64,000 bases of DNA from a virus. Its lineage: Duplodnaviria; Caudoviricetes. The notes under the pieces were generated by a model, which had not been told where the DNA came from, did no database searches, and saw only the letters and a program-made list of their open reading frames with translations. Made by a program: the position numbers and the translations under genes. Location of the stretch: the IMG/VR virus record IMGVR_UViG_3300026176_000228, positions 40,756 to 104,755 of that record. One strand, given 5' to 3'. Of the stretch, positions 1 through 49,767 are shown piece by piece; positions within the stretch are counted from its first letter, which is position 1; every line of letters begins with the position of its first letter.

Positions 1-395
1 AGGTCTAATGCGGTAAATTGACCGAGTTGCTTCCAGAAGTAGTCTAGCAGCACTTGCCCGCGCGTGCGTTCACCAGGCGTCAGGGTGATGTTGATACGCG
101 TGAGTTCACTCATGCCTGCCGCGTAAAGCATGTTGAGATTACGCAGCCAGTCACGCGCCGCGGTGCCTTCCGCGACCGGTACATCATAACCCTTACTGCT
201 TAGAGTGCTTTCGATAATACCACAGCCTGAAGATAAATAGCTGTTGACATTAGCCAGGGTAGGCGAAGTGGATGTGCCGAAACCCGTCGCGGGGCCAAGT
301 AAATTGCGGCACATCCCTGCGATATCGGAAGCCGCGGCGTAGGCTTCCCCAGGACTGACAAAGGCTGAACCAGTGGTTGAAAAGGTATTAGTCAT
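1..395 (-). CDS. Head-tail adaptor/connector-like virion protein (runs off window edge)
   Basis: Not in ORF track. My translation from ATG 395: MTNTFSTTGSAFVSPGEAYAAASDIAGMCRNLL...YLSSGCGIIESTLSSKGYDVPV...WLRNLNMLYAA. AYA..SD and GY.VPV pattern resembles phage head-tail connectors; lies downstream of capsid genes. Confidence 0.55.
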   Translation of the reverse strand, partial: MTNTFSTTGSAFVSPGEAYAAASDIAGMCRNLLGPATGFGTSTSPTLANVNSYLSSGCGIIESTLSSKGYDVPVAEGTAARDWLRNLNMLYAAGMSELTRINITLTPGERTRGQVLLDYFWKQLGQFTALD

Positions 396-407
396 TTAGA
401 AATATTC

Positions 408-1085
408 CTATAAATCCGTGACCGTAATGCTTTGCGGGTTAGACCAATTCGCCCCGCCCTGCCGCCACACATAGTACGCCCCAGGATCAAGATAGACTGT
501 CACGCGACCTAAAGTATTAGAATAAAGTGTACCGGCTTTGATGCTGCTGCCCGCGAGGTCATCTGTGACCCACACCGCGACACCTTCTAAGGGTAATGAA
601 GACGCGTCTAGGCATTCGATAGTTACAGTTTCCGAACCGGCACCCGCGCTACTAGCAACCAAACGGTATACCGCGCCGTCCGGTTCCAGCGCCGTGTCGA
701 GCTTGTCCGTGACTGCCTTGACCGCCGCGACCTCAGAGAGCACGTCGAAAACCTCGGTGACAATGCTGACGCTGGTGTCCGCGGCCTGGCCTGCTAAGTA
801 GACCTTGACCACGTCGCCTGTTTCGACGGCCAGTGAGGTCGTCAGCACGGTCAGCGTCGTCACGCCGTTCGCCAGGGGCACTAGCGCCGAGGGCGACTGG
901 TAGGCCGCGCCTGTTCCGCCAATCTGCCGCGTCAGGCACGCGCCGTAGGAGCCGTTCCCGGCCAGCCCGCTAGCCGACACCTGTACCAGAAGTTCGCGGT
1001 CGGCGTCCGCGGTGTAGGTATAGGTCAGCAGCGGATTGCCGCTGATGTTCTGTGCCGTCAAGGTGGAGATGGCGATTCTGTTCAT
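408..1085 (-). CDS. Putative virion-associated protein (chimeric, GC-rich N-terminal part)
   Basis: Likely start MNRIAIS at 1085, directly after the upstream stop; beta-rich; carboxypeptidase-regulatory-like C-terminus (PLEGVAVWV...GAYYVW). Confidence 0.5.
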   Translation of the reverse strand: MNRIAISTLTAQNISGNPLLTYTYTADADRELLVQVSASGLAGNGSYGACLTRQIGGTGAAYQSPSALVPLANGVTTLTVLTTSLAVETGDVVKVYLAGQAADTSVSIVTEVFDVLSEVAAVKAVTDKLDTALEPDGAVYRLVASSAGAGSETVTIECLDASSLPLEGVAVWVTDDLAGSSIKAGTLYSNTLGRVTVYLDPGAYYVWRQGGANWSNPQSITVTDL

Positions 1086-1087
1086 AT

Positions 1088-1834
1088 CTAGCTCACATAC
1101 CACTGGCCGAAGGCCGTCAGCGCGCCGCTGATAATGAGGCGCGTGTCTGCGCCGGTTGTCGAGTACGAATCGTTGTCTGCATACCACGCATAGCCTGCGA
1201 TGTTGGGATTGCCGTCCGCATACACCCGGAATATCTCAGCTTGCGCCACCGTGGGTACGCTCCACTCCGTGACCCAGACCTTGTTGATGCCGATGGACTG
1301 GCCGTAGGCGATGAACTGCTCGACCTTGGCGATAGCTGCCGCCGCGTCGCTTGCGTAGGAGTGGCAGCATATCCCGCCGTCCCATCTGGGATAGCCGCCG
1401 TAACGCGTGTTGTACTCCGTGCGCATGTTCGCCAGCCAGGTTGTGCCGAACTGCGGGGAGGGCGAGATCAGCGGCTTGTCAGGGAACGTCGGCTCGACAA
1501 AGTTGTGCCAGTGAATCGCGCCCTCGGCAGCGGTCATGTTCGCCTGCCCGGAGGCTTCGGGTTCGTTGTAGCCAAAGACCGCCACGCCATCAGTGGCCCA
1601 CTGCCAGTTTTCAGGCTGCGTGTTATCGTCGTAAATCATCAAGTACGCTGGCACGCCAGTGCCCTGGATGGGGTTCCACCACCAGTTGTAGTGCCAGTTG
1701 GGCTTGAGCAGGGCGATGCTGGCGGCTGGCGTTGCGCCCACAGTGCCCAGGCCCTGCTTGGGATGGCGCGGGTTTTGCAGGCCCTGCCGCCCCGGCCTGA
1801 CCCTCACCCGTCCGCCTACGAAGCCGCCCATCAT
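1088..1834 (-). CDS. Glycosyl hydrolase, GH128/Asl1-like catalytic core
   Basis: Motifs WHYNW, FGYNEPE, CHSY, VWVTEW, GYAWY, LTAFGQWY. Confidence 0.7.
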   Translation of the reverse strand: MMGGFVGGRVRVRPGRQGLQNPRHPKQGLGTVGATPAASIALLKPNWHYNWWWNPIQGTGVPAYLMIYDDNTQPENWQWATDGVAVFGYNEPEASGQANMTAAEGAIHWHNFVEPTFPDKPLISPSPQFGTTWLANMRTEYNTRYGGYPRWDGGICCHSYASDAAAAIAKVEQFIAYGQSIGINKVWVTEWSVPTVAQAEIFRVYADGNPNIAGYAWYADNDSYSTTGADTRLIISGALTAFGQWYVS

Positions 1835-2337
1835 GGCAGCACCAGACTTTCGGCGTCCGCCACCGTTTGCGGGAAGGCTGTCGTCCCGTCGAACTTGTCC
1901 GCCGTGATGACGCCGTCCGCCATAGCTGTGACGTTGACATCCACAGTCGCCCCGTCAACCAGGCTGTTATTGAGTGCCGCCGCCCGGAAGCCGATCACCG
2001 GCCCGCGCCAGGGCAGCACGCCCGTCGCCACACCCGTAAACCAGCCGAACCCCTCGGTATCGTTGTTGACGGACGCGCCGCCGGAGGCGGGTATCTCGAT
2101 GGTGTACAGCCCGCCGTCCTGGTGCGCCCAGTCATACGCGCCGCCCGCAGTAGGTGTGACGACGGTGGCCGTGGTCGCGCCTGCGGTCGTGGTGAAGTGC
2201 CAGATAAGTTCCAGGCCAGCCGCGTTGTAAGCCACAGACTCCTCGCGCGTCTTGAAATCCGTGTCGTCCAGCAGCGGCAAGATGTTCACCGGCACCTCCG
2301 AAAGCGCCGCATCCACATCCATCCACAGGTCAGGCAT
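1831..2337 (-). CDS. Hypothetical phage virion protein
   Basis: Likely start MPDLWMD after AAGGAG RBS; Thr/Ala/Gly-rich. Confidence 0.55.
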   Translation of the reverse strand: MPDLWMDVDAALSEVPVNILPLLDDTDFKTREESVAYNAAGLELIWHFTTTAGATTATVVTPTAGGAYDWAHQDGGLYTIEIPASGGASVNNDTEGFGWFTGVATGVLPWRGPVIGFRAAALNNSLVDGATVDVNVTAMADGVITADKFDGTTAFPQTVADAESLVLP

Positions 2338-2348
2338 GATTTTGCTCC

Positions 2349-3020
2349 TTATTGCTGTGCGTAGGCGTAAGCGGGTTTGCCGCTGCCGCCGCCGAGTGTA
2401 TAGGTAATCACCAGCCGGGGCCGGTTGCCAGTCGTGGCACCATCCGAGGACGTGAACCGCTTGCGGCAGTTCATCGTCCCCTCGTCCGCGCAAATCAGCC
2501 ACCAGCCATAGTTGGTGTATGTGCCAGCATAAAACGCTTGACAGTCGGCCAGTACGTCCCAGCCATAGGCTGTTGCCGGGTCTGTGACCGTCACGGTATC
2601 CGTCGGCGTAGCGACAAACTCCGTGCCTGCCGCGCCGCCTGCTCCGCCTGCCCAGGCTACCGAGCCGTTGGCATTGCGATAGTTATACGTGCTGGCGTTT
2701 TCGCCAGTAGGCAGCTCGGCGTTCCCAATGCCCTCGTACCATTCCACTAACCCGCGATGCACGCCGAAAACCCGGTCAGAGGTATCCGCTTCTGACTCGC
2801 AGTAAAGCGTCAACGTGGCTGCGGTCAGCGTGGCCCCGGCAGGCAAGCCGGAGAGGTCAAACTGGAACAGGCCGCGGGAGATATTCGGCGGTGCAGCGCC
2901 GATATCCCCGATGTAGAGCGGCGATGTCTTGCCATAATTTGTTGTTGGCGACTGGCTCTGAATCAGCGTGTCCTTCGCCGTATTGACATCGCCGCCGTAG
3001 CCGTCCGTGTAAGTTGGCAT
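2349..3020 (-). CDS. DNRLRE-domain (carbohydrate-binding-like) protein
   Basis: DTLIQSQSPTTNYG, RGLFQFDLSGLP, ATLTLY, FTSSD...RPRLVITY motifs; GGAGG RBS. Confidence 0.7.
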   Translation of the reverse strand: MPTYTDGYGGDVNTAKDTLIQSQSPTTNYGKTSPLYIGDIGAAPPNISRGLFQFDLSGLPAGATLTAATLTLYCESEADTSDRVFGVHRGLVEWYEGIGNAELPTGENASTYNYRNANGSVAWAGGAGGAAGTEFVATPTDTVTVTDPATAYGWDVLADCQAFYAGTYTNYGWWLICADEGTMNCRKRFTSSDGATTGNRPRLVITYTLGGGSGKPAYAYAQQ

Positions 3021-3032
3021 GATAATCCTCCC

Positions 3033-3299
3033 TTACGTGGCGGCCAGCGCCGTGGCGAGATTGGCTATATAGAACATATCCCCCCGCGCGAAAGCCGCCA
3101 CGTCAAGGTACTTGATGAGTTCCGCCTGCGAAGCCTGCTGAATCCAGGCTTTAGCCGTGAACAACGCCCGCACGTTATAGAGCGTGTCGTGCGTGCCCTC
3201 GTTGCGCGTCGCCTCGTACTTGCTCACGAACCAGCCCGGAGCCACGCGCTCGTACAACCCTATCGTGTCCTGCATCAGCGGCAGGGCGTTGGTCCGCAA
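3033..3299 (-). pseudogene. C-terminal fragment of a captured gene
   Basis: No RBS; begins at a GC-content junction; ends YLDVAAFARGDMFYIANLATALAA. Confidence 0.4.
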
Positions 3300-3561
3300 G
3301 TATAACCGGAACGGTATAACCCTTGCTTTGTAGCGTGCTTTCTAGGATGCCGCAACCCGATGAAAGATAAGAATTTACTGCGGCCTGCGTGGGCACAGTA
3401 GACGCGGTGAAGGTAGAACTGGACGCCAAGAGATTGCGGCACATATTAGCTACATCTGAACCCGTCGCGTAAGCTTCGACCCAGCCTTCACCATCTAACA
3501 AAACCCCAAAATCATATTGAGGCGTAAAATCGCGTAAGCCAGCTACAACTTGTTTAGGCAT
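3175..3561 (-). pseudogene. Truncated paralogue of the 1..395 head-tail adaptor
   Basis: EAYATGSDVANMCRNLL...VNSYLSSGCGILESTLQSKGYTVPV aligns with 1..395; similarity stops at ~3300 where GC-rich DNA begins. Confidence 0.6.
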
Positions 3562-3572
3562 AACAACCTCAA

Positions 3573-3705
3573 CTTAGTGTGTCTTTGAGAAAGACACTTT
3601 GGCGATCAGGAATCGATGCCGCGGTCAGGTTAATGATCTGCCCACAAGCACTGATTGTAAAGTATTGGCTCCAGTGTAAACATGAGTTGTAATAGTCGCA
3701 GCCAT
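3573..3705 (-). pseudogene. Short, apparently frameshifted gene remnant
   Basis: Strong RBS AAAAGGAG and ATG at 3705 give only 26 codons; a second frame stays open to just before the next gene. Confidence 0.3.
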
Positions 3706-3761
3706 GGAAATCTCCTTTTAGCAAAATTAACTTTTGCGTAAATTTATTGCTCTGTTCTGTT

Positions 3762-4364
3762 CTACGCGGGTGTCACGCCTGTGATCGGGCTGGCACTGGA
3801 TGAGCTGGTCAAGGTAGCTTCCCAAGCTTTAGCCAGGTCATCTTCCTTAGTCACGGTCATGGTTGTGCCAGAAACCGACCACTTATTGCGCAGGAAACGC
3901 AGGGCGTTTAGCGCTGACCGAGCAGCCTCGTCTGTCACTTGTGTCCAATCACGCTTGAGCAAGGCGTCGGCGTTTTCGACAGCGGTAGGCACGTCGGCAA
4001 TATCCGCACTCACCGATGCGCCCGCCGGTGCGCCCAGCCGCGCATAGCTGTCGCCCGTCTGGTTGATGGACGCCTCGGTAAACACCTGCAATTGGTCAAG
4101 TACCACGCCCGACGTGGCCGACTTCGGCGCGAAAATCAGAACCTCGCCGTTCGTCTCCGCCTGCGTCAGATCGAACACATACCAGCCGGGCATGTTGGTC
4201 GCGTCCAACTCGGTCGGGTTCACGTCATCCAACTGGTCAGCCGCCGCAAAGCCGATGGACTCATAGCAGGTGATATTGGCCGCGTCGCCCGTCTTGGCCG
4301 CGCCCGTGGAGGCGGTGTAGGCAAACACCGCAATCTTCTGACTGGCCGTGTTTTTGTAGAGCAT
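3762..4364 (-). CDS. Hypothetical virion-associated protein
   Basis: 200 aa, GGGGAG RBS, co-oriented with structural genes. Confidence 0.6.
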   Translation of the reverse strand: MLYKNTASQKIAVFAYTASTGAAKTGDAANITCYESIGFAAADQLDDVNPTELDATNMPGWYVFDLTQAETNGEVLIFAPKSATSGVVLDQLQVFTEASINQTGDSYARLGAPAGASVSADIADVPTAVENADALLKRDWTQVTDEAARSALNALRFLRNKWSVSGTTMTVTKEDDLAKAWEATLTSSSSASPITGVTPA

Positions 4365-4365
4365 C

Positions 4366-5466
4366 CTATCTCCCCATCAACCGCGCTACGCGCCGGATCA
4401 CGCCCCCCGCCCCGGCCTGCACCGCACCCTTATCCGCTTTCGGCGCTGTACTCGCCAGCCCCAGGAACGTCAGTGGGAAGGCGTCTTCTGTCACCCCCGC
4501 GACCGCGCCGTTGATGTCAAAATCCCCGTTCGCCGCGTCCACAAACGGCGCGCCCGCCAGCGTATCATTGTTGATAGACTCGACAATCGTCTCTAGCGTG
4601 AGCGAGTAATTCGTCGCGTTGTTATAGGCGGCATTGGCGAGCAGCAGCATCGCGTTTTTATCTACGGTTGAGACTCCCTTACCAGAGTTGCCAGAGAACC
4701 CCTGCACGATATTGTTGAGGTTGAGGCTGTTGACCTTGAGAAACAGCCCCGTACCTGTAGACGCTCCGTCTGACACTATCGTGTTGTGCAGCGCCAGCGC
4801 GCCCGCGCCGCGCACTCCGTCAATGTTGCCGGAACGCAGCCGGATGACATTGTGCGCCAGCACTGCAGCCACACCGTCCAGCAGCACCACGGCGGCGGCG
4901 GGCGTCACGCTGCCGGTGTCGATGTAACAACCCACTATGATGGACGGTTGGCTGGAGTAGAGCGCATAGTTGCCGGCTAGGTCGTGCAGGTGGCAGCCTA
5001 CCACGCGCGTCGTGCCGGATAACAGAACGCCATTGGTGCCTGTGTTGCCGTAGACCTCGCAGCGGAACAACAAGCAGTAATTACGCAGCCCCGACATGAC
5101 CACATTCGCGCCACAGTTGCCCATTTTCAAGTCGATGAAATGCACGTAATCCGTGTTACTGGTGGTCCAAATCGAGTAGGTCGCATTGCCGCTGATTTCG
5201 CCAATGCCGCCGTCATTGGCCGTGGACTTATAGCCGCGGAACAGCAGTGGAGCTGCCGCGGTGGGCGTGCCGTAGGTGGCGATGGACAATGGCGCAGCCA
5301 GCACGTCCGCCGCGCCCGCCTGGACATTGACTTGATCGCCATCCGTGGCATTGCGCGTAATCGTGTTCAGCGCGTGTTGCGTCGTCGCCCACGGTGTACC
5401 AATCGACCCGTTGCCCGTCGTGTCGTTGCCGCTGGCCGGACTGACGTAATAGTGCGTGCGTGCCAT
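4366..5466 (-). CDS. Right-handed parallel beta-helix (pectin lyase-like) protein
   Basis: N-terminal YYVSPASGNDTTGNGSIGTPWAT, HN/NN repeats, C-terminal PFVDAANGDF...DKGAVQ. Confidence 0.7.
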   Translation of the reverse strand: MARTHYYVSPASGNDTTGNGSIGTPWATTQHALNTITRNATDGDQVNVQAGAADVLAAPLSIATYGTPTAAAPLLFRGYKSTANDGGIGEISGNATYSIWTTSNTDYVHFIDLKMGNCGANVVMSGLRNYCLLFRCEVYGNTGTNGVLLSGTTRVVGCHLHDLAGNYALYSSQPSIIVGCYIDTGSVTPAAAVVLLDGVAAVLAHNVIRLRSGNIDGVRGAGALALHNTIVSDGASTGTGLFLKVNSLNLNNIVQGFSGNSGKGVSTVDKNAMLLLANAAYNNATNYSLTLETIVESINNDTLAGAPFVDAANGDFDINGAVAGVTEDAFPLTFLGLASTAPKADKGAVQAGAGGVIRRVARLMGR

Positions 5467-5477
5467 GCCCTACCGCC

Positions 5478-5846
5478 TTAGATGTTCGTCGGCCCCGCCA
5501 ACTGGACGCCATACCCGTCCACTGTCTCTTTGTCCGGCCACACGACCGCAGACGCCCCGCCGTTGTCGCCGTAGACGGCAGCAACGAGGTTGACGCTCCA
5601 CGCAAACTTGTCCGTGAAATCCGCCTTCGTCATGGTCAGGTCCGCGCCCGCCAGTCCGCTGCCGTCCTCGATCACATCAGCGTCCGCAATCGTGGCCCAC
5701 AGCGGCGCAATGGTCTGCGTGTACGCTTGCACGAGCAACTGCTGTTGTCGCAGCCCGCGCACCACATCGGCCATCGCCGCCCGGTAGTCCCTGAGAAACT
5801 CGTTGACCTGTTGTCGCTGAGTCGGTGTCAAGTCAGTCAGTGCCAT
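5478..5846 (-). CDS. Hypothetical protein
   Basis: 122 aa, GGAG RBS. Confidence 0.6.
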   Translation of the reverse strand: MALTDLTPTQRQQVNEFLRDYRAAMADVVRGLRQQQLLVQAYTQTIAPLWATIADADVIEDGSGLAGADLTMTKADFTDKFAWSVNLVAAVYGDNGGASAVVWPDKETVDGYGVQLAGPTNI

Positions 5847-6012
5847 GTTGTAAGTCTCCCGTTACCAAAGGTTCTAGCTCGGCCATGATTTGATCGAGTC
5901 CACAGTTGCAATTCACTGGGTGTTCACACGTCTCTTTGTGCTGGATGTAACCGCCATCCAGCAGCTTCCCGATCAAGTCGCGAAACACTGCAATGGTTTC
6001 CGTGTCGTCCAT
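5833..6012 (-). CDS. Small hypothetical protein (H..C...CxC motif)
   Basis: My translation MDDTETIAVFRDLIG...HKETCEHPVNCNCGLDQ..., 59 aa, GGAGG RBS. Confidence 0.5.
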   Translation of the reverse strand: MDDTETIAVFRDLIGKLLDGGYIQHKETCEHPVNCNCGLDQIMAELEPLVTGDLQHGTD

Positions 6013-12325: not shown

Positions 12326-13468
12326 CTAAAGCCCAACGGCTTCTTGGGGCACGCACGCCGCAACCGGCCACGTTACGCCCCAGGCTCGCTGTCCGCGGGC
12401 CAGCAGATTACGTGCAGCGTTCTCATCTCGATCCATAGATAAGCCACACGCGCACCGCACCCAGCGATCTGCTAACGTTAGGTGCTCAAATATAGAACCG
12501 CATTGTGAGCAGGTTTTAGATGAATAAGCGGGATTGACTGCCACAATTAACTTCCCGGCCCATGCTGCCTTGAAAACTAATTGACTACGGAAGTAACCCC
12601 ACGAAGCATCTAGAATGCTCTTTGATAAATGATGGTTCTTTACCATATTGGTGATTTGTAAATCTTCAATCGCAATACGGTCATAATGTGATACTAAATT
12701 ATGGACTGTTTTTTTGATGAAATCAGTACGTCGATTAGCGATACGCCGATGGTGTAACTGCACCGCGCGCTTGGCCCTACCCCGACCTCGACTACCATTC
12801 TTGCGACGCGACATACGCCGCTGTAAGACGCGAAATTTAGCTTGCTCAGTACGATACCATTTCGGGTTTTCGATATGTTCACCGTTTGATATGGTGAGTA
12901 ATGAGCTAATACCCACATCAATTCCAGCTTCTTGACCAGTTAGCCCAAGTGGTTGTGGGTCTATCTCACAAGCAAAGCAAACATACCATTTATTCGCTTG
13001 TCTACGGATGCGTATGGTTTTGATTCTACCCTCTATGGGACGATGCCAGCGAACCGCGACGCGTCCAATACCCGATAGTTTCAAACGCCGACCGTCAATC
13101 TTGAAACCGTTGTTTAGTTCTTTAAAACCAAAAGAATCATAACGGCCACGTTCACGAAAGCGTGGATAACCCGGTGTCTCGCCTGCCTTAACCCGGCGAA
13201 AAAACGCCTGAAACGCTTTATCCAAATCAGTCGTGACGACTTGCAAGACATGACTGTGAATCTGTCCAGCGAAGGAGTTTGCCCTGCGGTAGTTCTTAAC
13301 GTTTGCTAATTGCTCAAACTTGCCAACACTGCGTTTTTCTCCTTCCCACGCATCTCTGCGTTCCGCAAGACAAGTATTGTACCAGTGACGACAAGTTTCA
13401 AGCGTTTGATTTAGTAGACGCGCTTGATTCTTGCTTGGATACAAACGGTATTTGTAGGTAATCAGCAT
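12326..13468 (-). CDS. tnpB: RNA-guided endonuclease TnpB
   Basis: YKYRLYP HTH; RuvC GIDVG, IEDL, DRDENAARN; zinc ribbon CSQC..CAC. Confidence 0.92.
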   Translation of the reverse strand: MLITYKYRLYPSKNQARLLNQTLETCRHWYNTCLAERRDAWEGEKRSVGKFEQLANVKNYRRANSFAGQIHSHVLQVVTTDLDKAFQAFFRRVKAGETPGYPRFRERGRYDSFGFKELNNGFKIDGRRLKLSGIGRVAVRWHRPIEGRIKTIRIRRQANKWYVCFACEIDPQPLGLTGQEAGIDVGISSLLTISNGEHIENPKWYRTEQAKFRVLQRRMSRRKNGSRGRGRAKRAVQLHHRRIANRRTDFIKKTVHNLVSHYDRIAIEDLQITNMVKNHHLSKSILDASWGYFRSQLVFKAAWAGKLIVAVNPAYSSKTCSQCGSIFEHLTLADRWVRCACGLSMDRDENAARNLLARGQRAWGVTWPVAACVPQEAVGL

Positions 13469-17650: not shown

Positions 17651-17836
17651 GGAGACTCCTAAAATTGGCATATGCTAAATCTATATTATTAGTATACCAG
17701 AAGGAGTCTGTCTACCACAAGCGCACAAGCAAGTTACGGGTATGAATCTAGTATGAATCTTGGTTTGAGGTTGCTTCTCTCCTGCCTCTGTGGTTCAGAG
17801 GTTAGTTTGGCGGTCATTTAGTGGGCTAAAGTCAGG

Positions 17837-24338: not shown

Positions 24339-24673
24339 CGATAGCACGTTTGGAGTACCAAACCACCTAGCCTAAATCCTATTAGCTAACCATGACTAGA
24401 CTAGTAGAATTTAGGCTAGGACGTTTGATAGCAAACATGCTGCTAGAATGCCCATAGATACCGTTTTAAAGCCCATAGGCGCGTTCTGTATAGGGTATAG
24501 GTATAAAATGACCTATACCCCATTTTTAGCCGTTTCTGGCGCGTTTTTGCTATCAACGCGATAGGTCATAGCACACTTGTTCGGAAATCAGCCGTTTCGT
24601 GCGTGCTATACCGCATACAGCCGTGTATGATTATGTCAATACAGTCATACATCGGGCGTTTTGGCATACATCT

Positions 24674-24862
24674 GATTTTTGGCATATGCTAGAATCTAAT
24701 TTATCTGAGTGGTCGATAATACGCGTGTAGACTATAGTGATTATCGACGCGCTAGTCCAAAAATGGTTTGACCATTCATCCTATATGGCGCTAGTCTACA
24801 GCGTCCTTATAGGTTCAATGTCACTAGTCTGGTAAATTAGATTCTAGCATATGCCAAAAATC
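24674..24862 (+). ncRNA. Putative structured RNA closed by a perfect 30-bp stem
   Basis: 24674-24703 is the exact reverse complement of 24833-24862; internal hairpins have complementary loops. Confidence 0.55.
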
Positions 24863-25182
24863 GGGTCATATGCCACTAGACTTGCCAAGCATCATAGACT
24901 ATGCCATATGTTATAGCATTTGACACAAGTCATGATGCTTGGCATTTTATATGGCCGGTGCATTTTTTTGACTTGCTTTATATAGTTATGTCAACGTAAC
25001 TGTAACCGTAACTGTACTCGAAATTGTTTTTACATTTTTGGCATATGCTAAATTTGAAAAAACAATTTACAACCGTAACTGTCAACTGTAAGAAAAACAA
25101 TTCATAAATTACTGTGCTAACTGTGGCGCAGTAAAAAACAATTCACATTTGGCATATGCCAAAAACGAAGGAGCGTGCAAAG

Positions 25183-25500: not shown

Positions 25501-25707
25501 ATGCTCACCACTAAAACCGCCAAGCAAATGCTTCTGGATCGCGGCCAAGCCTTGCCGCGTGTAGGTTATGAAAGCATTGTAACTGAATTCAAACAGCCGT
25601 GCGGTTGCTTTGATCGCGTATGGCTAGTCAACCGTGCTGGCAAATACTCCACGCGTGTTGACTTTCATGCTTGTGATGCTTGTTGGTTCAAGTTGCCAAT
25701 TCGGTAA
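25501..25707 (+). CDS. Array cassette: small Cys-rich protein
   Basis: AAGGAG RBS; PCGC...ACDAC. Confidence 0.6.
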   Translation: MLTTKTAKQMLLDRGQALPRVGYESIVTEFKQPCGCFDRVWLVNRAGKYSTRVDFHACDACWFKLPIR

Positions 25708-26826: not shown

Positions 26827-26907
26827 ACTCAAGTTGAACTGGTTTGCCTGTTTCCTGCCATAAAACAGGTATTGTAAATTTGGCATATGCTAAAAAAGGA
26901 GTCTGTC

Positions 26908-27039
26908 ATGTACAAGCTTCTTACTCTGCTCGGCTTTCGTGTATGGGCATACACGAATGCCTGCATTATGTTGCAAAACGGACGCTTGCGGGTGAATGTC
27001 TATCCCAATCGTGTTTCTATCTATCGGTCTACGCTATGA
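26908..27039 (+). CDS. Array cassette: 43-aa protein
   Basis: AAGGAG RBS; ATGA overlap with the next gene. Confidence 0.5.
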   Translation: MYKLLTLLGFRVWAYTNACIMLQNGRLRVNVYPNRVSIYRSTL

Positions 27040-27338
27040 CCATACAAGTCGCGGTCAAACCTAAAGATGGCGATTTTGTGTATGGGCCATTTGAAGTGGC
27101 GACATTCCAGCGCGTGGGTGAGATTCTAGTTAAGATCGCGATTCAAAACCATGATCCTGAAATCTCTCGCCACGACCTATGGCTAATAGAAAATGGTAAA
27201 CTGACTGAACGGGCCTTCTATTTCCTACCCGATTATGTCAGTATCAGGAAAAAGAAAACGCGTACGCGTAAAGCCTATACACAGATATGGGCTTTCGATG
27301 CAAAACTGACAAGGTATATCCGACAGAAGTCGGAGTAA
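27036..27338 (+). CDS. Array cassette: hypothetical protein
   Basis: Translationally coupled start MTIQVAV. Confidence 0.55.
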   Translation: MTIQVAVKPKDGDFVYGPFEVATFQRVGEILVKIAIQNHDPEISRHDLWLIENGKLTERAFYFLPDYVSIRKKKTRTRKAYTQIWAFDAKLTRYIRQKSE

Positions 27339-28753: not shown

Positions 28754-28915
28754 TTTAGCATATGCCAAATCTACAGTTCCGCGCGGCTCTCCACCGCGGC
28801 GCTAAATACTCAGTCCCTACTCAAGAATCGTCAATCGAAGAAAGCACACTGAGTCAAATCAGTCTCGTACTGCGCGCGTAAGAGTACCGGGATTGTAAAT
28901 TTGGCATATGCTAAA
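28754..28915 (+). ncRNA. Putative multi-stem RNA cassette closed by a 27-bp stem
   Basis: 28754-28780 pairs with 28889-28915 (1 mismatch, 2 G-U); internal stems CGCGG/CCGCG, ACTCAGT/ACTGAGT, GTACT/AGTAC; no ORF. Confidence 0.5.
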
Positions 28916-46340: not shown

Positions 46341-49172
46341 TTACTGTTTCCAGCGTGAAGTTCTAGGTGGCCTGCTAACTGTCCAGCGTGACTTAGCCAG
46401 GCCACCTTCCGCTTCTGTCTGCCCCAAGCGTTTGAGTTCATACATAGACTCATCTTCTAGCGCGCCAGTGGGCAGAGCAAAGGTCATCGCGAGACTATCC
46501 GCGGTATCTGGTGAACGCCCTAAACGCGCGCGAATATCATCCTTACTCTCTAGCAGAATCCGGCCATACATATCTGGCGCAAACTTGGGCATAATCAAAT
46601 CAGCTTGTAGACGCGGGTCATTCGGGATGGCAAGCTTGCCTTCGCGCAGTAGTTCACGTACTTTCCACCAACACTCCGCGCGCAGATTGGCAAAACGCTT
46701 CTTCTGTACGGCTGAGCGCGCGAAGTTGACCGCCACAACTGGTAAACCCATGACTCTGGCTCTGTCGGTTGCTCCCGCGCCTGATCCCACGTCATCAATA
46801 TAGACTTTACTGGCATGAAACTCACGCGTCTGCAACGCTAACCACTCAGTAATCTGCTGCGTATCCTGGCCGCGTAGCCGCGTGAGATGCGTCACCTGCA
46901 TACCCTGACGCACACATAATGAGTTATCATCGCCGTTGCGTGGCGCAGGGTCCAGGCCAATGACGACTTCACTGCCGCGTTCGTTTAGCACGCGTTCCTG
47001 TGCGGCAAGCACCCAACTGAGTTTGATAAGCTGGTCCTCAGCCTGCTCAGGTGGGATACCCAAAACCTTAGCCTGGAAGATGGGCATCGGTTCGTAATAT
47101 TTATCAATCCAGGGCAGATGCACCGCGTTGGGTGTACCCGGCGCAACTTCAGTCGCCCATTCCTTAGCGCGTTCTTCCACCCAAGAGCGCGTGACCGCAC
47201 CAGGAATAACCTCGTGCCCCTCTTTGACATTGGGATGGTCAAAAGCGGAGATACGAATATGGTGCCAGGATGGATTCAGGGTCGCGTCATAAAATGGCCC
47301 CGCTTGTTCAACGGGGTTGCCAATCGCGAGGATGCGGCACTGGTCGCCTACTGCGAGGCCATTGACGCTATCCCAAATGGCTTTTGGTAAACCCGCAGCT
47401 TCATCCATAATGACCAGCATACGCGGGCCGTGGAAGCCTTGTAGAGTTGAGATAGTATCGCCATCGCGTCCGGTGTCTTTTTTAGGTGAAAGACCAATGG
47501 CATAATGGTCGGAAGCGATTTCCCAACGGGGTGTCTCAAAGACTTGACCGGGTAAGTTAGCCTTACGCGCCGCGGTACGCATATACCGCCAGATGATGTT
47601 GGCAACCTGATTGAAGGTATTGCCACTCCAGATGTATTTGCCATTACGCCTGACTAACACGATACCAGATGGCACTGAAACACAGTATACGTAACCGGAA
47701 TATGGTTGCTTGTACCAACCAGGACATAAATTAGTTCTATTTTGATGCTTTATCCGATTTATGGCAACTGGAAATTCACCACGTTTTTTCCAGAAACCAA
47801 CTTGGTACATGTCTTGATTTTTATAGACATGCCCATTGACTGCTGTATCAAGTACAGTATGATTCACATTGGCTATGATGCCACATTTCAAAGCCAATAC
47901 CTGTAAATCACCAGCTAATTCACGGTTGCAGGAATAGAGACGCGTGCTGCCATTCTTATCCGTACCACCATCGCCCATTTCAAAACCGCGCAAGAACGCT
48001 TTGATAATAGGCGTTTCAGCATTACTAATAATATCTGGCACGCGCTTGGTATGAGAGTTACCGTACACCACGAATTCGGTTGCCATTTCCAGGCTATTGA
48101 TAGTATAGTCATAGCAACCAGGATTTTGATGTTTTTCTTGCTTTTTAGCTCTTTTCTCCAATCCAACTCTCTCTAGTAAATCTTCGATGTATTGGGTATT
48201 TCTACCTGTTACCGTAACGCGATAATGCCTTCTAACTGGTTCTACCTGAGCATAACCTTCGGCAAACCAGAAACCTAAGAACTCAGCCCAATTTTCATCA
48301 ATACCAGTATCTTCACCTTGCCAACCAGCTATTTTTCTAAATCTACCGTTTTTGCCATAAATTTCACTGGCAGCATAAACATCATTTCTGAATTCTTTGC
48401 GCCAGATAGTTCTATCAAAGAGACAGCGATGGTTAGGCGTAACCAGGAAATCAACTAGCTGACTCTTGAATCCAATCATTTCTCCTTCATATGGAAATTC
48501 CACTATGCCAGTGGGCTGTACGTACTCTAGATTGTCATTATTTAGTTGCGCTACCTTATCAGTTATAGATAAATCTTTGAATAATTTCCAACCTGAATCG
48601 GTTAGAATTTCAGTTTGATCATCATAGCAAGGAGCAACCGTAATAACGATAGATGGACTATGAACCGTGAGAAACCAGCACGCGAGCGCACTAGCTGACA
48701 CGCTTTTACCCGTTCCGAAGGAACTCTCTACCACGGTGTTGTGGTTCTTCTCAACTGAGTGACAAATCTCAGCCAGTTTATCCCACATCGCATACCCCAG
48801 GGTATCGCGCATGAACTCAACCGGGTCAGTGGGAAAACCCTTACTTTCAGTCTGCTCTTGATAACCCGCGATACCCTGCTGCCAATCGGGAGTAGACTGT
48901 AATAGTTGCGCAATCGTCTCCGCGGGCAGAAAAGGCATGAGTTTGAGTAAATCTTCCTGCGAGGCATTTTTCTTCTTGTTACGACCCGCGTTAGTCGCGA
49001 CCTTCTCCGTCACCGGCGCAGCCACATGCGCAGATACTTTCTGCGCTTCAGCGACTTGTGCCGCTTTAGCCGCGCGGACTTGATCGCGCGCGAGAGCTTT
49101 CTTTTCTAGCAGCGTAGGTAACGGGGTGCCATCCTCTGCTACAGTCTTACGGGGTGGACTAGCGCGTTTCAT
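46341..49172 (-). CDS. terL: Terminase large subunit containing an intein
   Basis: Walker A GTGKS, DEAAG, IGNP, GLDP, DD, SPD.AD; likely start MKRASPP. Confidence 0.9.
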   Translation of the reverse strand: MKRASPPRKTVAEDGTPLPTLLEKKALARDQVRAAKAAQVAEAQKVSAHVAAPVTEKVATNAGRNKKKNASQEDLLKLMPFLPAETIAQLLQSTPDWQQGIAGYQEQTESKGFPTDPVEFMRDTLGYAMWDKLAEICHSVEKNHNTVVESSFGTGKSVSASALACWFLTVHSPSIVITVAPCYDDQTEILTDSGWKLFKDLSITDKVAQLNNDNLEYVQPTGIVEFPYEGEMIGFKSQLVDFLVTPNHRCLFDRTIWRKEFRNDVYAASEIYGKNGRFRKIAGWQGEDTGIDENWAEFLGFWFAEGYAQVEPVRRHYRVTVTGRNTQYIEDLLERVGLEKRAKKQEKHQNPGCYDYTINSLEMATEFVVYGNSHTKRVPDIISNAETPIIKAFLRGFEMGDGGTDKNGSTRLYSCNRELAGDLQVLALKCGIIANVNHTVLDTAVNGHVYKNQDMYQVGFWKKRGEFPVAINRIKHQNRTNLCPGWYKQPYSGYVYCVSVPSGIVLVRRNGKYIWSGNTFNQVANIIWRYMRTAARKANLPGQVFETPRWEIASDHYAIGLSPKKDTGRDGDTISTLQGFHGPRMLVIMDEAAGLPKAIWDSVNGLAVGDQCRILAIGNPVEQAGPFYDATLNPSWHHIRISAFDHPNVKEGHEVIPGAVTRSWVEERAKEWATEVAPGTPNAVHLPWIDKYYEPMPIFQAKVLGIPPEQAEDQLIKLSWVLAAQERVLNERGSEVVIGLDPAPRNGDDNSLCVRQGMQVTHLTRLRGQDTQQITEWLALQTREFHASKVYIDDVGSGAGATDRARVMGLPVVAVNFARSAVQKKRFANLRAECWWKVRELLREGKLAIPNDPRLQADLIMPKFAPDMYGRILLESKDDIRARLGRSPDTADSLAMTFALPTGALEDESMYELKRLGQTEAEGGLAKSRWTVSRPPRTSRWKQ
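47619..48629 (-). mobile_element. Intein with LAGLIDADG homing endonuclease (337 aa)
   Basis: AP|CYDDQTEILT...VTPNH...FLGFWFAEG...FLRGFEMGDG...VRRNGKYIWSGN|T. Confidence 0.9.
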
Positions 49173-49767
49173 TAACCACCGTGTACTCACCCTCAATCGT
49201 CTCACTGTTTTGTAACAGACGTTTTTGGGTCATCAATTCAATGACTTGCAGGCGTTTGGCTTCCGGTAACGCAGCCAAGGCTTCTTGCACCTGCATCGCG
49301 GAGAGGTTGAAAATCTGTGGAATAGACTTAGCTTGCAGTTCTGACGCGATGCGCGCGAGGTTTGCAGCTTCGCCAGGTGAAAGTTCTAGGGCTTCATCAT
49401 CAATGTTGTCCAGGGCGCGGTTAGCCTTCTTACGTAACCGTGCACCGATTTCGTAATCCTGCTCACGCCATTCCCAATCACGCTCAGCCCAATTAACATA
49501 GCGACTTTTTAGTTCCGCAATATCTCTGGCTGCGGCGCGTTCAGCCCAGCGGTATTCATCGGCAGTGCGCGAGAAACTGGATGATACCTGCCCACCTTCA
49601 CGCGCGGTACCTTTAGTCCACTCACGCCAGGCTTTTCTGTAGGTGCGGTCGATGGGGCGTAAATTGGCATATACCAAAAACGCGGCATAGTCGCCCGCAG
49701 GTTCGCCTGCGGCCTCTTGCCATTCCCAAATCGGGTCGGTAAATTCAAGTTCTTCTCGTTGCGTCAT
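49159..49767 (-). CDS. Terminase small subunit-like protein
   Basis: WE...GE...Y.AF..Y, W.ERA.A.D; overlaps the terL start. Confidence 0.65.
   Translation of the reverse strand: MTQREELEFTDPIWEWQEAAGEPAGDYAAFLVYANLRPIDRTYRKAWREWTKGTAREGGQVSSSFSRTADEYRWAERAAARDIAELKSRYVNWAERDWEWREQDYEIGARLRKKANRALDNIDDEALELSPGEAANLARIASELQAKSIPQIFNLSAMQVQEALAALPEAKRLQVIELMTQKRLLQNSETIEGEYTVVNETR

Follow-up and report, generated by a model that had tools for sequence, protein, structure and literature searches.

A probable structured RNA carried as an accessory unit of a palindrome-punctuated gene array in a Caudoviricetes phage

An uncultured Caudoviricetes phage carries a gene-free unit of 165 bases that most likely gives rise to a folded RNA; in the one related copy found, the stems and the loop-loop contact have been preserved through matched changes. 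The window analyzed here is a stretch of 64,000 nucleotides comprising bases 40756-104755 of the linear, 104,755-bp, ~69% complete IMG/VR record IMGVR_UViG_3300026176_000228. The element (24674-24862 of the window) lies in an 817-bp gap without a convincing gene (24339-25155), at the front end of a 23-kb array, with a 411-aa ORF on one side of the gap and a long block of small plus-strand genes on the other. It is real, conserved, and structured and matched no described RNA family; its support is deep but narrow, coming from two sequences. On balance, we think that it represents a plus-strand non-coding RNA unit of a palindrome-punctuated early array, which would be excised at its long stem and play an accessory role in trans. 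This assessment applies to the picture as a whole, and our confidence in any single inferred step is much lower.

The window encodes a Mu-like portal, an RNA ligase, a UvrD-type helicase, a sliding clamp, an XkdF-type protease, and TnpB. The portal shares no more than 39.5% identity with any other among 50,697 phage records, a collection in which the phage has no close relative. Outside the array, a 954-aa ORF on the minus strand (46341-49205) has a LAGLIDADG domain (residues 401-450), suggestive of an intein or of fusion to a homing endonuclease. The first part of the window (1-6000) has a G+C content of ~60%, compared with 45-52% in the rest, and carries pectate-lyase/CBM96-like and glycosyl-hydrolase-like genes, perhaps tail-fiber or depolymerase modules acquired from elsewhere.

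The original prediction, made from the letters of this stretch, had described a 30-bp closing stem, two hairpins, and a small AATGGT/ACCATT stem; the sequence and a repeat finder located each of them within the element, and the loops GTAGACT and AGTCTAC, claimed to be exactly complementary, are so. The closing duplex (P1) is perfect over 30 bp (24674-24703 with 24833-24862) and extends to 32 pairs with one U.G and one C-G pair, or to 40 nt at 90% complementarity. Its 5' arm (24674-24705, plus strand as for all parts that follow) consists of the left array palindrome (core GCATATGC at 24682-24689) and a 16-nt private extension, TAGAATCTAATTTATC; its 3' arm (24831-24862) consists of the private extension and the right array palindrome (core 24847-24854). 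The unpaired J1/2 (TGAGTG, 24706-24711), unchanged in the homologue described below, leads to P2 (GTCGATAAT/ATTATCGAC, 24712-24748), a hairpin of 9 bp (24712-24720 with 24740-24748) with a 19-nt loop, L2, that contains the kissing segment GTAGACT (24727-24733). A sixth helix that the original prediction had missed, P3, is formed by GCTAGT (24751-24756) and ACTAGT (24823-24828) and encloses P4 and P5. P4 is the small hairpin AATGGT-TTG-ACCATT (24762-24776; 24762-24767 with 24771-24776), with AACG/CGTT in the homologue, and P5 is a two-part hairpin (CCTATA/TATAGG and GGCGCT/AGCGTC, 24780-24813) with a 7-nt loop, L5 (AGTCTAC, 24793-24799), the exact reverse complement of GTAGACT. The unpaired J5/3 (24814-24822) reads TTCAATGTC here and TTCAATATC in the homologue.

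The element RNA folds at -84 kcal/mol, compared with -39.9 +/- 4.1 in shuffles (z = -10.7), and both strands fold well (z = -10.7 and -11.6). A 7-nt complement of L2 and L5 arose by chance in 385 of 200,000 shuffles of loop 2 (~2/1000). Conserved unpaired bases surround the junctions (UGAGUG, YCAAA, CAU, and UUCAAURUC). RNAalifold predicts that J1/2 (AGUG) may pair alternatively with the P3 5' arm (CGCU), the bases involved being invariant, and the pairing between L2 and L5 could form between molecules rather than within one.

Relatives were sought with three neighboring proteins as anchors and by an IMG/VR profile search, which together yielded seven related contigs; with the 411-aa protein as the anchor, seven relatives were found among 5.8 billion proteins, and their contigs were fetched. 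A homologous element is present in only one of the seven (L025). A further copy (L022) comes from the same phage in another sample, leaving two independent copies. The L025 homologue (L025:6393-6581) is a diverged sequence of 189 nt at the same site, with a 75-aa gene unit downstream, and it has the same architecture (-87.4 kcal/mol, z = -10.6). In a plain MAFFT alignment unfitted to structure (A7), 60 pairs were scored, 99.2% of the cells are paired, and 20 pairs changed on both sides, a number reached by none of 500 shuffles; in the alignment fitted to model R1 (A4), the respective values are 72 pairs, 97.9%, 24, and none of 500, and slid controls gave 0-3 for both alignments.

The changes are spread over the helices. 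Ten of the 16 positions of the private P1 extension differ from L025, nine pairs having changed on both sides, and all remain paired. Two pairs of P2 changed on both sides and two on one side (to U.G), all of them still pairing, and P3 shows one swap from U-A to G-C along with a conserved G.U. The kissing loops are GTAGACT/AGTCTAC here and ACAAGCT/AGCTTGT in L025, so that pairing persists at all seven positions although four of the pairs were exchanged on both sides; the 7-nt complement in L025 arose by chance in 197 of 200,000 shuffles. The kissing helix had been left out of the model used for alignment fitting, so its retention in L025 is an out-of-sample test that the contact passed. Homologue covariation had been named in the original prediction as a check, and loss of the loop complementarity in homologues as the outcome that would count against it; L025, the only diverged homologue found, retains the complementarity. 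Judging from this comparison, the fold and the loop-loop contact are maintained by compensatory change. Such changes occur in every helix, and the call of an unannotated structured RNA with kissing loops is upheld; no evidence emerged for the ribozyme-like label attached to it, and the pRNA-like one is unlikely. Compared with L025, 35/44 unpaired bases are unchanged, as are 53/98 of the paired ones that lie outside the palindrome, 25 of 27 positions in the six junction segments, and 6 of 14 in the loop sequences. The covariation is a single pairwise comparison, and with only two independent copies, R-scape-type significance is not assignable to it.

Several features point to an RNA read from the plus strand. 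The model structure contains seven G.U and no A.C pairs on this strand, so that the other strand would have seven mismatches; the core of the L025 homologue folds at -39.6 kcal/mol on the plus strand and -25.3 kcal/mol on the minus strand; and the genes around the element are on the plus strand. All six reading frames contain several stops in each of the two copies. A small protein gene was therefore rejected, no frame being open in both.

Searches against known families bore out the claim that the element is unannotated. In Rfam 15, only plant miRNA-precursor models matched the long hairpin, below threshold (35 bits, compared with a gathering threshold of 70), and the L025 homologue had no match even at E <= 10; ribozyme and riboswitch models likewise gave no match at this cutoff to the element alone. 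ARAGORN detected no tRNA or tmRNA in the window, and a tRNA-like reading was rejected on this ground; the junction motifs GGUUCAAU and AGUGG are reminiscent of tRNA T- and D-loops, and a T-arm cannot be drawn in both copies. A retron was rejected, given that the record (~69% complete) contains no RVT_1 match, and so was a bacterial Y RNA (YrlA), with no TROVE/Ro match, no Rfam match, and no tRNA-like part according to ARAGORN.

In both arms of the closing stem, the outermost 16 nt are not private sequence but a copy of a palindrome that pervades the array, so that P1 is built from two adjacent array palindromes and a private 16-bp extension. The original prediction had seen neither this nor that the element is a presence/absence unit of the array. 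The motif TTGGCATATGC occurs 80 times in the window on the two strands, compared with 1.6 expected, which corresponds to ~40 copies of the 16-bp palindrome TTTGGCATATGCCAAA. This palindrome precedes nearly every small gene in the array: between 23.1 and 46.1 kb, almost every copy is followed, at a distance of 5-30 nt, by an AAAGGAG ribosome-binding site and a start codon, and the copies nearly always fall between a stop codon and the following AAAGGAG on the plus strand. The copies span 23096-46136, with further ones at 17665 and 60358 and eight in the part of the record before the window. A scan of IMG/VR for the palindrome elsewhere gave single chance copies only, and a literature search returned unrelated primers only. 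The palindrome carries TTGGCA, without a correctly spaced -10 box and without a U-tract, as judged by a sigma-70 criterion that may not be that of the host; a promoter search at the element identified none with confidence. Neither a T7-type RNA polymerase nor sigma-70 region 2 was found in the ~69% complete record.

Paired from their centers, neighboring palindromes of the array usually complement each other over 8 nt, compared with 30 nt at the element and 20 nt at 28762-28907. The two palindromes of the closing stem deviate from the consensus in their inner halves (GCTAGA and TCTAGC, compared with GCCAAA and TTTGGC), and these deviations are complementary. The second extended pair closes another gene-free unit (28754-28915; -59.5 kcal/mol, z = -4.7) that is ~95% identical to L020:10008-10192, with three stem changes that are all wobble compatible on the plus strand; this is probably another RNA cargo unit, with a sequence unrelated to the first. 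Units of the array are also exchanged as genes at the palindromes. The first array gene differs among phages, and the second (25501-25707, 68 aa) is 97% identical to L024:6937-7140, whereas the adjoining 411-aa proteins are 44% identical, which indicates a recent exchange of a single palindrome-bounded unit. Within the array, two overlapping plus-strand frames (26887-27039 and 26943-27338) are both conserved in L020 (74% and 65% identity, respectively) and L025, with a ribosome-binding site that serves the short frame; the arrangement may reflect either a frameshift or two genes that overlap.

The gap and the palindrome are common to all the fetched relatives; L020, for example, contains 17 palindrome copies compared with 0.5 expected. 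Two lineages represented by three contigs (L020/L021 and L024), whose neighboring proteins are 73% (tblastn) and 44% identical to those of this phage, respectively, have one palindrome at the place of the element and the same right flank: the empty site reads ...catacatctggcaTTTGGCATATGCCAAAA... straight into the shared right flank, the single-palindrome sequence ...GTCATACATCTGGCATTTGGCATATGCCAAAA... running into the same flank that follows the element in this phage. In L026, a half-palindrome is fused to the right half-palindrome, with a gene directly after, which looks like a loss through recombination between TTGGCAT repeats. A solitary half-palindrome (TTTTGGCAT, 24659-24667, plus strand), probably a recombination scar, lies immediately to the left of the unit here and in L025, and it is this one that is fused to the right half in L026. 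The unit missing in the single-palindrome relatives spans 165 bp from palindrome to palindrome (24690-24854, plus strand). The single or fused palindrome in relatives shows that the element is discrete and dispensable, that is, an accessory unit bounded by array palindromes.

The lineage appears rare. Exact and gapped pattern scans of IMG/VR recovered no further homologue; a JGI metagenome scan gave one chance match in AT-rich coding DNA without palindromes, and a GTDB genome scan gave one Mycobacterium match that the RNA model rejected. Apart from these two chance matches, the three scans revealed no dispersed copies of the MITE type. There was no blastn match in the phage collection, no third copy detectable with covariance model R1 in the window or in any fetched locus, and no second copy in the 105-kb record.

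The remainder of the gap is rich in structure of its own. The upstream part (24339-24673) is hairpin dense (z = -7.4) and conserved in five phages, among which GCTAGAATG does not vary and 22 pairs show a compensatory change according to RNAalifold; this part may function as a leader RNA or as a control region. Downstream, 20 nt from the unit, a long plus-strand hairpin (24883-24944) followed by TTTT (to 24948) is conserved in five sequences and shows U.G/U-A/C-G variation at two pairs that is readable on the plus strand only; possibly, it marks the end of a non-coding transcript. Between this terminator-like hairpin and the first array gene (24990-25147), iterons of the GTAACTGT type (24992-25015 and 25071-25082) and AAAAACAATT repeats (25057, 25092, and 25133, with an inverted one at 25022) enclose two copies of the palindrome, whose mutual pairing extends over 24 nt; the layout resembles that of an origin or of a promoter-operator region. 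Five of the 31 TAGACT copies in the window cluster in the 817-bp gap (24397, 24728, 24793 on the minus strand, 24877, and 24895). A reading of the kissing loops as copies of this DNA motif was rejected: the two downstream copies, in the conserved flank, are unchanged in L025, where the loops have changed.

In the scenario that we favor, the product would be an RNA of ~125 nt built from two domains, one being hairpin P2 and the other comprising P3 with P4 and P5 inside it. Pairing of L5 with seven bases of L2 would lock the two domains side by side, and this contact would shape the conserved junction into a binding or catalytic surface, with the two array palindromes and the 16 private base pairs closing the fold as a perfect duplex of 30-32 bp. 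The unit would be transcribed within an early plus-strand transcript, or as part of a leader RNA ending at the 24883-24948 hairpin. Because bacterial RNase III acts on perfect duplexes that extend for at least about two helical turns, the host enzyme may cut the long duplex and release a stable RNA of ~125-165 nt, in the manner of rRNA excision from its precursor. An RNase III gene of the phage itself was not found in the record (~69% complete). Once free, the RNA would serve as a trans-acting accessory factor, such as a decoy or a protein-binding scaffold. Because the unit is accessory and sited among small orphan early genes, our best guess is a role in host take-over or counter-defense. The unit would move between phages by recombination in the flanking palindromes, following the precedent of the PeSL cassettes discussed below.

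An improbable alternative is an RNA that acts in cis or processes itself, be it a ribozyme cutting a polycistronic transcript, a leader governing read-through into the array, or a self/non-self "lock and key" based on pairing of L2 in one molecule with L5 in another. Small ribozymes and riboswitch aptamers likewise have several helices folded compactly, conserved bases left unpaired, and a tertiary contact, and the element is followed by a terminator-like hairpin here and directly by a gene in L025. This downstream neighbor, however, differs between the two phages, being a non-coding hairpin in one and a 75-aa gene in the other, which speaks against a cis target of its own. Riboswitches do not typically have a closing stem of 30 bp, and ribozyme and riboswitch models failed to match, as noted above. 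The loops of the two phages differ strongly (6 of 14 bases identical), which counts for this alternative; they have diverged no more than ordinary stems, however, where 53 of 98 paired bases are identical.

Still less probable, in our view, is that the structure operates at the DNA level, as a cruciform or a folded single strand in replication, recombination, or packaging, or is a by-product of unit insertion at the palindromes, without any functional RNA. The setting lends itself to this interpretation: the gap is rich in inverted repeats and in the iterons GTAACTGT and AAAAACAATT, as an origin or control region would be, the element ends in copies of the DNA palindrome found at unit borders, and both strands fold well, the same helices being possible in principle in single-stranded DNA. 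Yet a loop contact with four double changes and junctions more conserved than the stems are marks of a three-dimensional fold that duplex DNA does not need, and all seven wobbles are G.T on the plus strand and A.C on the other. Relatives without the element imply, moreover, that it is not an essential origin or packaging site.

It is very improbable that the unit is a MITE that inserted into the palindrome, duplicated the GCATATGC core, and has merely incidental internal hairpins: 157 bp of private sequence with inverted ends (TAGAATCTAATTTA...), GCATATGC on both flanks and once at the empty site, the empty site itself, and a TnpB gene 11 kb away (12326-13468) are compatible with such an insertion, but the inverted ends differ at 10 of 16 private positions between the homologues while staying complementary, whereas a transposase would need conserved ends, the conserved part is the interior junctions, no further copy exists in the 105-kb record or any scanned collection, IS200/IS605 elements have no inverted ends, and GCATATGC stands at every unit border of the array, so that its flanking copies need not be a target-site duplication.

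More tentatively, the element might found a class of phage RNA that has not been described before, in which a kissing-loop fold travels as exchangeable cargo, the palindromes double as recombination site and processing duplex, and the RNA is a new catalytic or counter-defense molecule. Prediction of a tertiary contact from one sequence, followed by its confirmation through covariation in an independent homologue, is support of a kind rarely obtained. A function is known for few of the structured RNAs that phages encode, and new folds whose tertiary contact has been verified provide a starting point for finding ribozymes, decoys, and protein partners. Phages that naturally carry or lack the element, which was gained and lost among relatives, constitute a natural experiment. 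Should the palindromes function in exchange as well as in the release of RNA, a single short motif could allow phages to shuffle RNA and protein cargo in the same array, and the 28754-28915 unit hints at more than one such RNA in this phage.

Among known RNAs, purine and lysine riboswitch aptamers and natural hammerhead ribozymes resemble the element in that junction hairpins are held side by side by loop-loop Watson-Crick pairs, with conserved junction bases; unlike them, the element has a much longer closing stem and no fixed downstream gene, and there is no match in sequence or structure. In phi29 pRNA, the loops pair between molecules to form a ring on the portal, and this RNA is essential and conserved in every phi29-like phage. 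The element shares with it the nature of a phage RNA of similar size and two complementary loops that change together between related phages. It differs in coming from a 105-kb virus with a Mu-like portal, in having no match to the Rfam pRNA, and in being missing from close relatives (L020/L021, L024, and L026), which makes a phi29-type packaging RNA unlikely; the pRNA-like reading in the original prediction was accordingly dropped. A flanking duplex of ~30 bp that encloses a structured RNA is also a feature of RNase III processing stems in rRNA precursors and T7 early mRNA, compared here from sequence alone.

At the level of the array, the closest parallels are two systems of exchangeable units. 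Like integron gene cassettes with their attC sites, the array is a one-strand series of promoterless exchangeable units with palindromic separators (imperfect ones in the case of attC). In contrast to integrons, the site here is a fixed 16-bp palindrome, not a 57-141-nt attC, and each unit brings its own ribosome-binding site; no integrase or recombinase was seen when the larger ORFs, a part of those in the window, were scanned with Pfam. In the PeSL (promoter-early stem-loop) cassettes of T4-type phages, a motif recurs between small non-essential genes of a plastic early region, and insertions, deletions, and replacements between related phages break in this motif (Arbiol et al. 2010, PMC2839356; Comeau et al. 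2014, PMC4122927). The same holds for the array described here, where the breakpoints of indels and replacements, for gene units as well as for the RNA unit, fall in the repeated motif; the likeness is known from these sequence breakpoints, mini-circles being a feature of the PeSL side. The sigma-70-like early promoter and terminator stem-loop of PeSL have no recognizable counterpart, the motif here being a perfect 16-bp palindrome without a sigma-70 promoter or a U-tract terminator, a comparison in which the promoter half is weakly tested and the host promoter type may differ. Unlike in PeSL, too, the cargo of the unit would be an RNA rather than a gene, with the flanking motifs co-opted as its closing stem.
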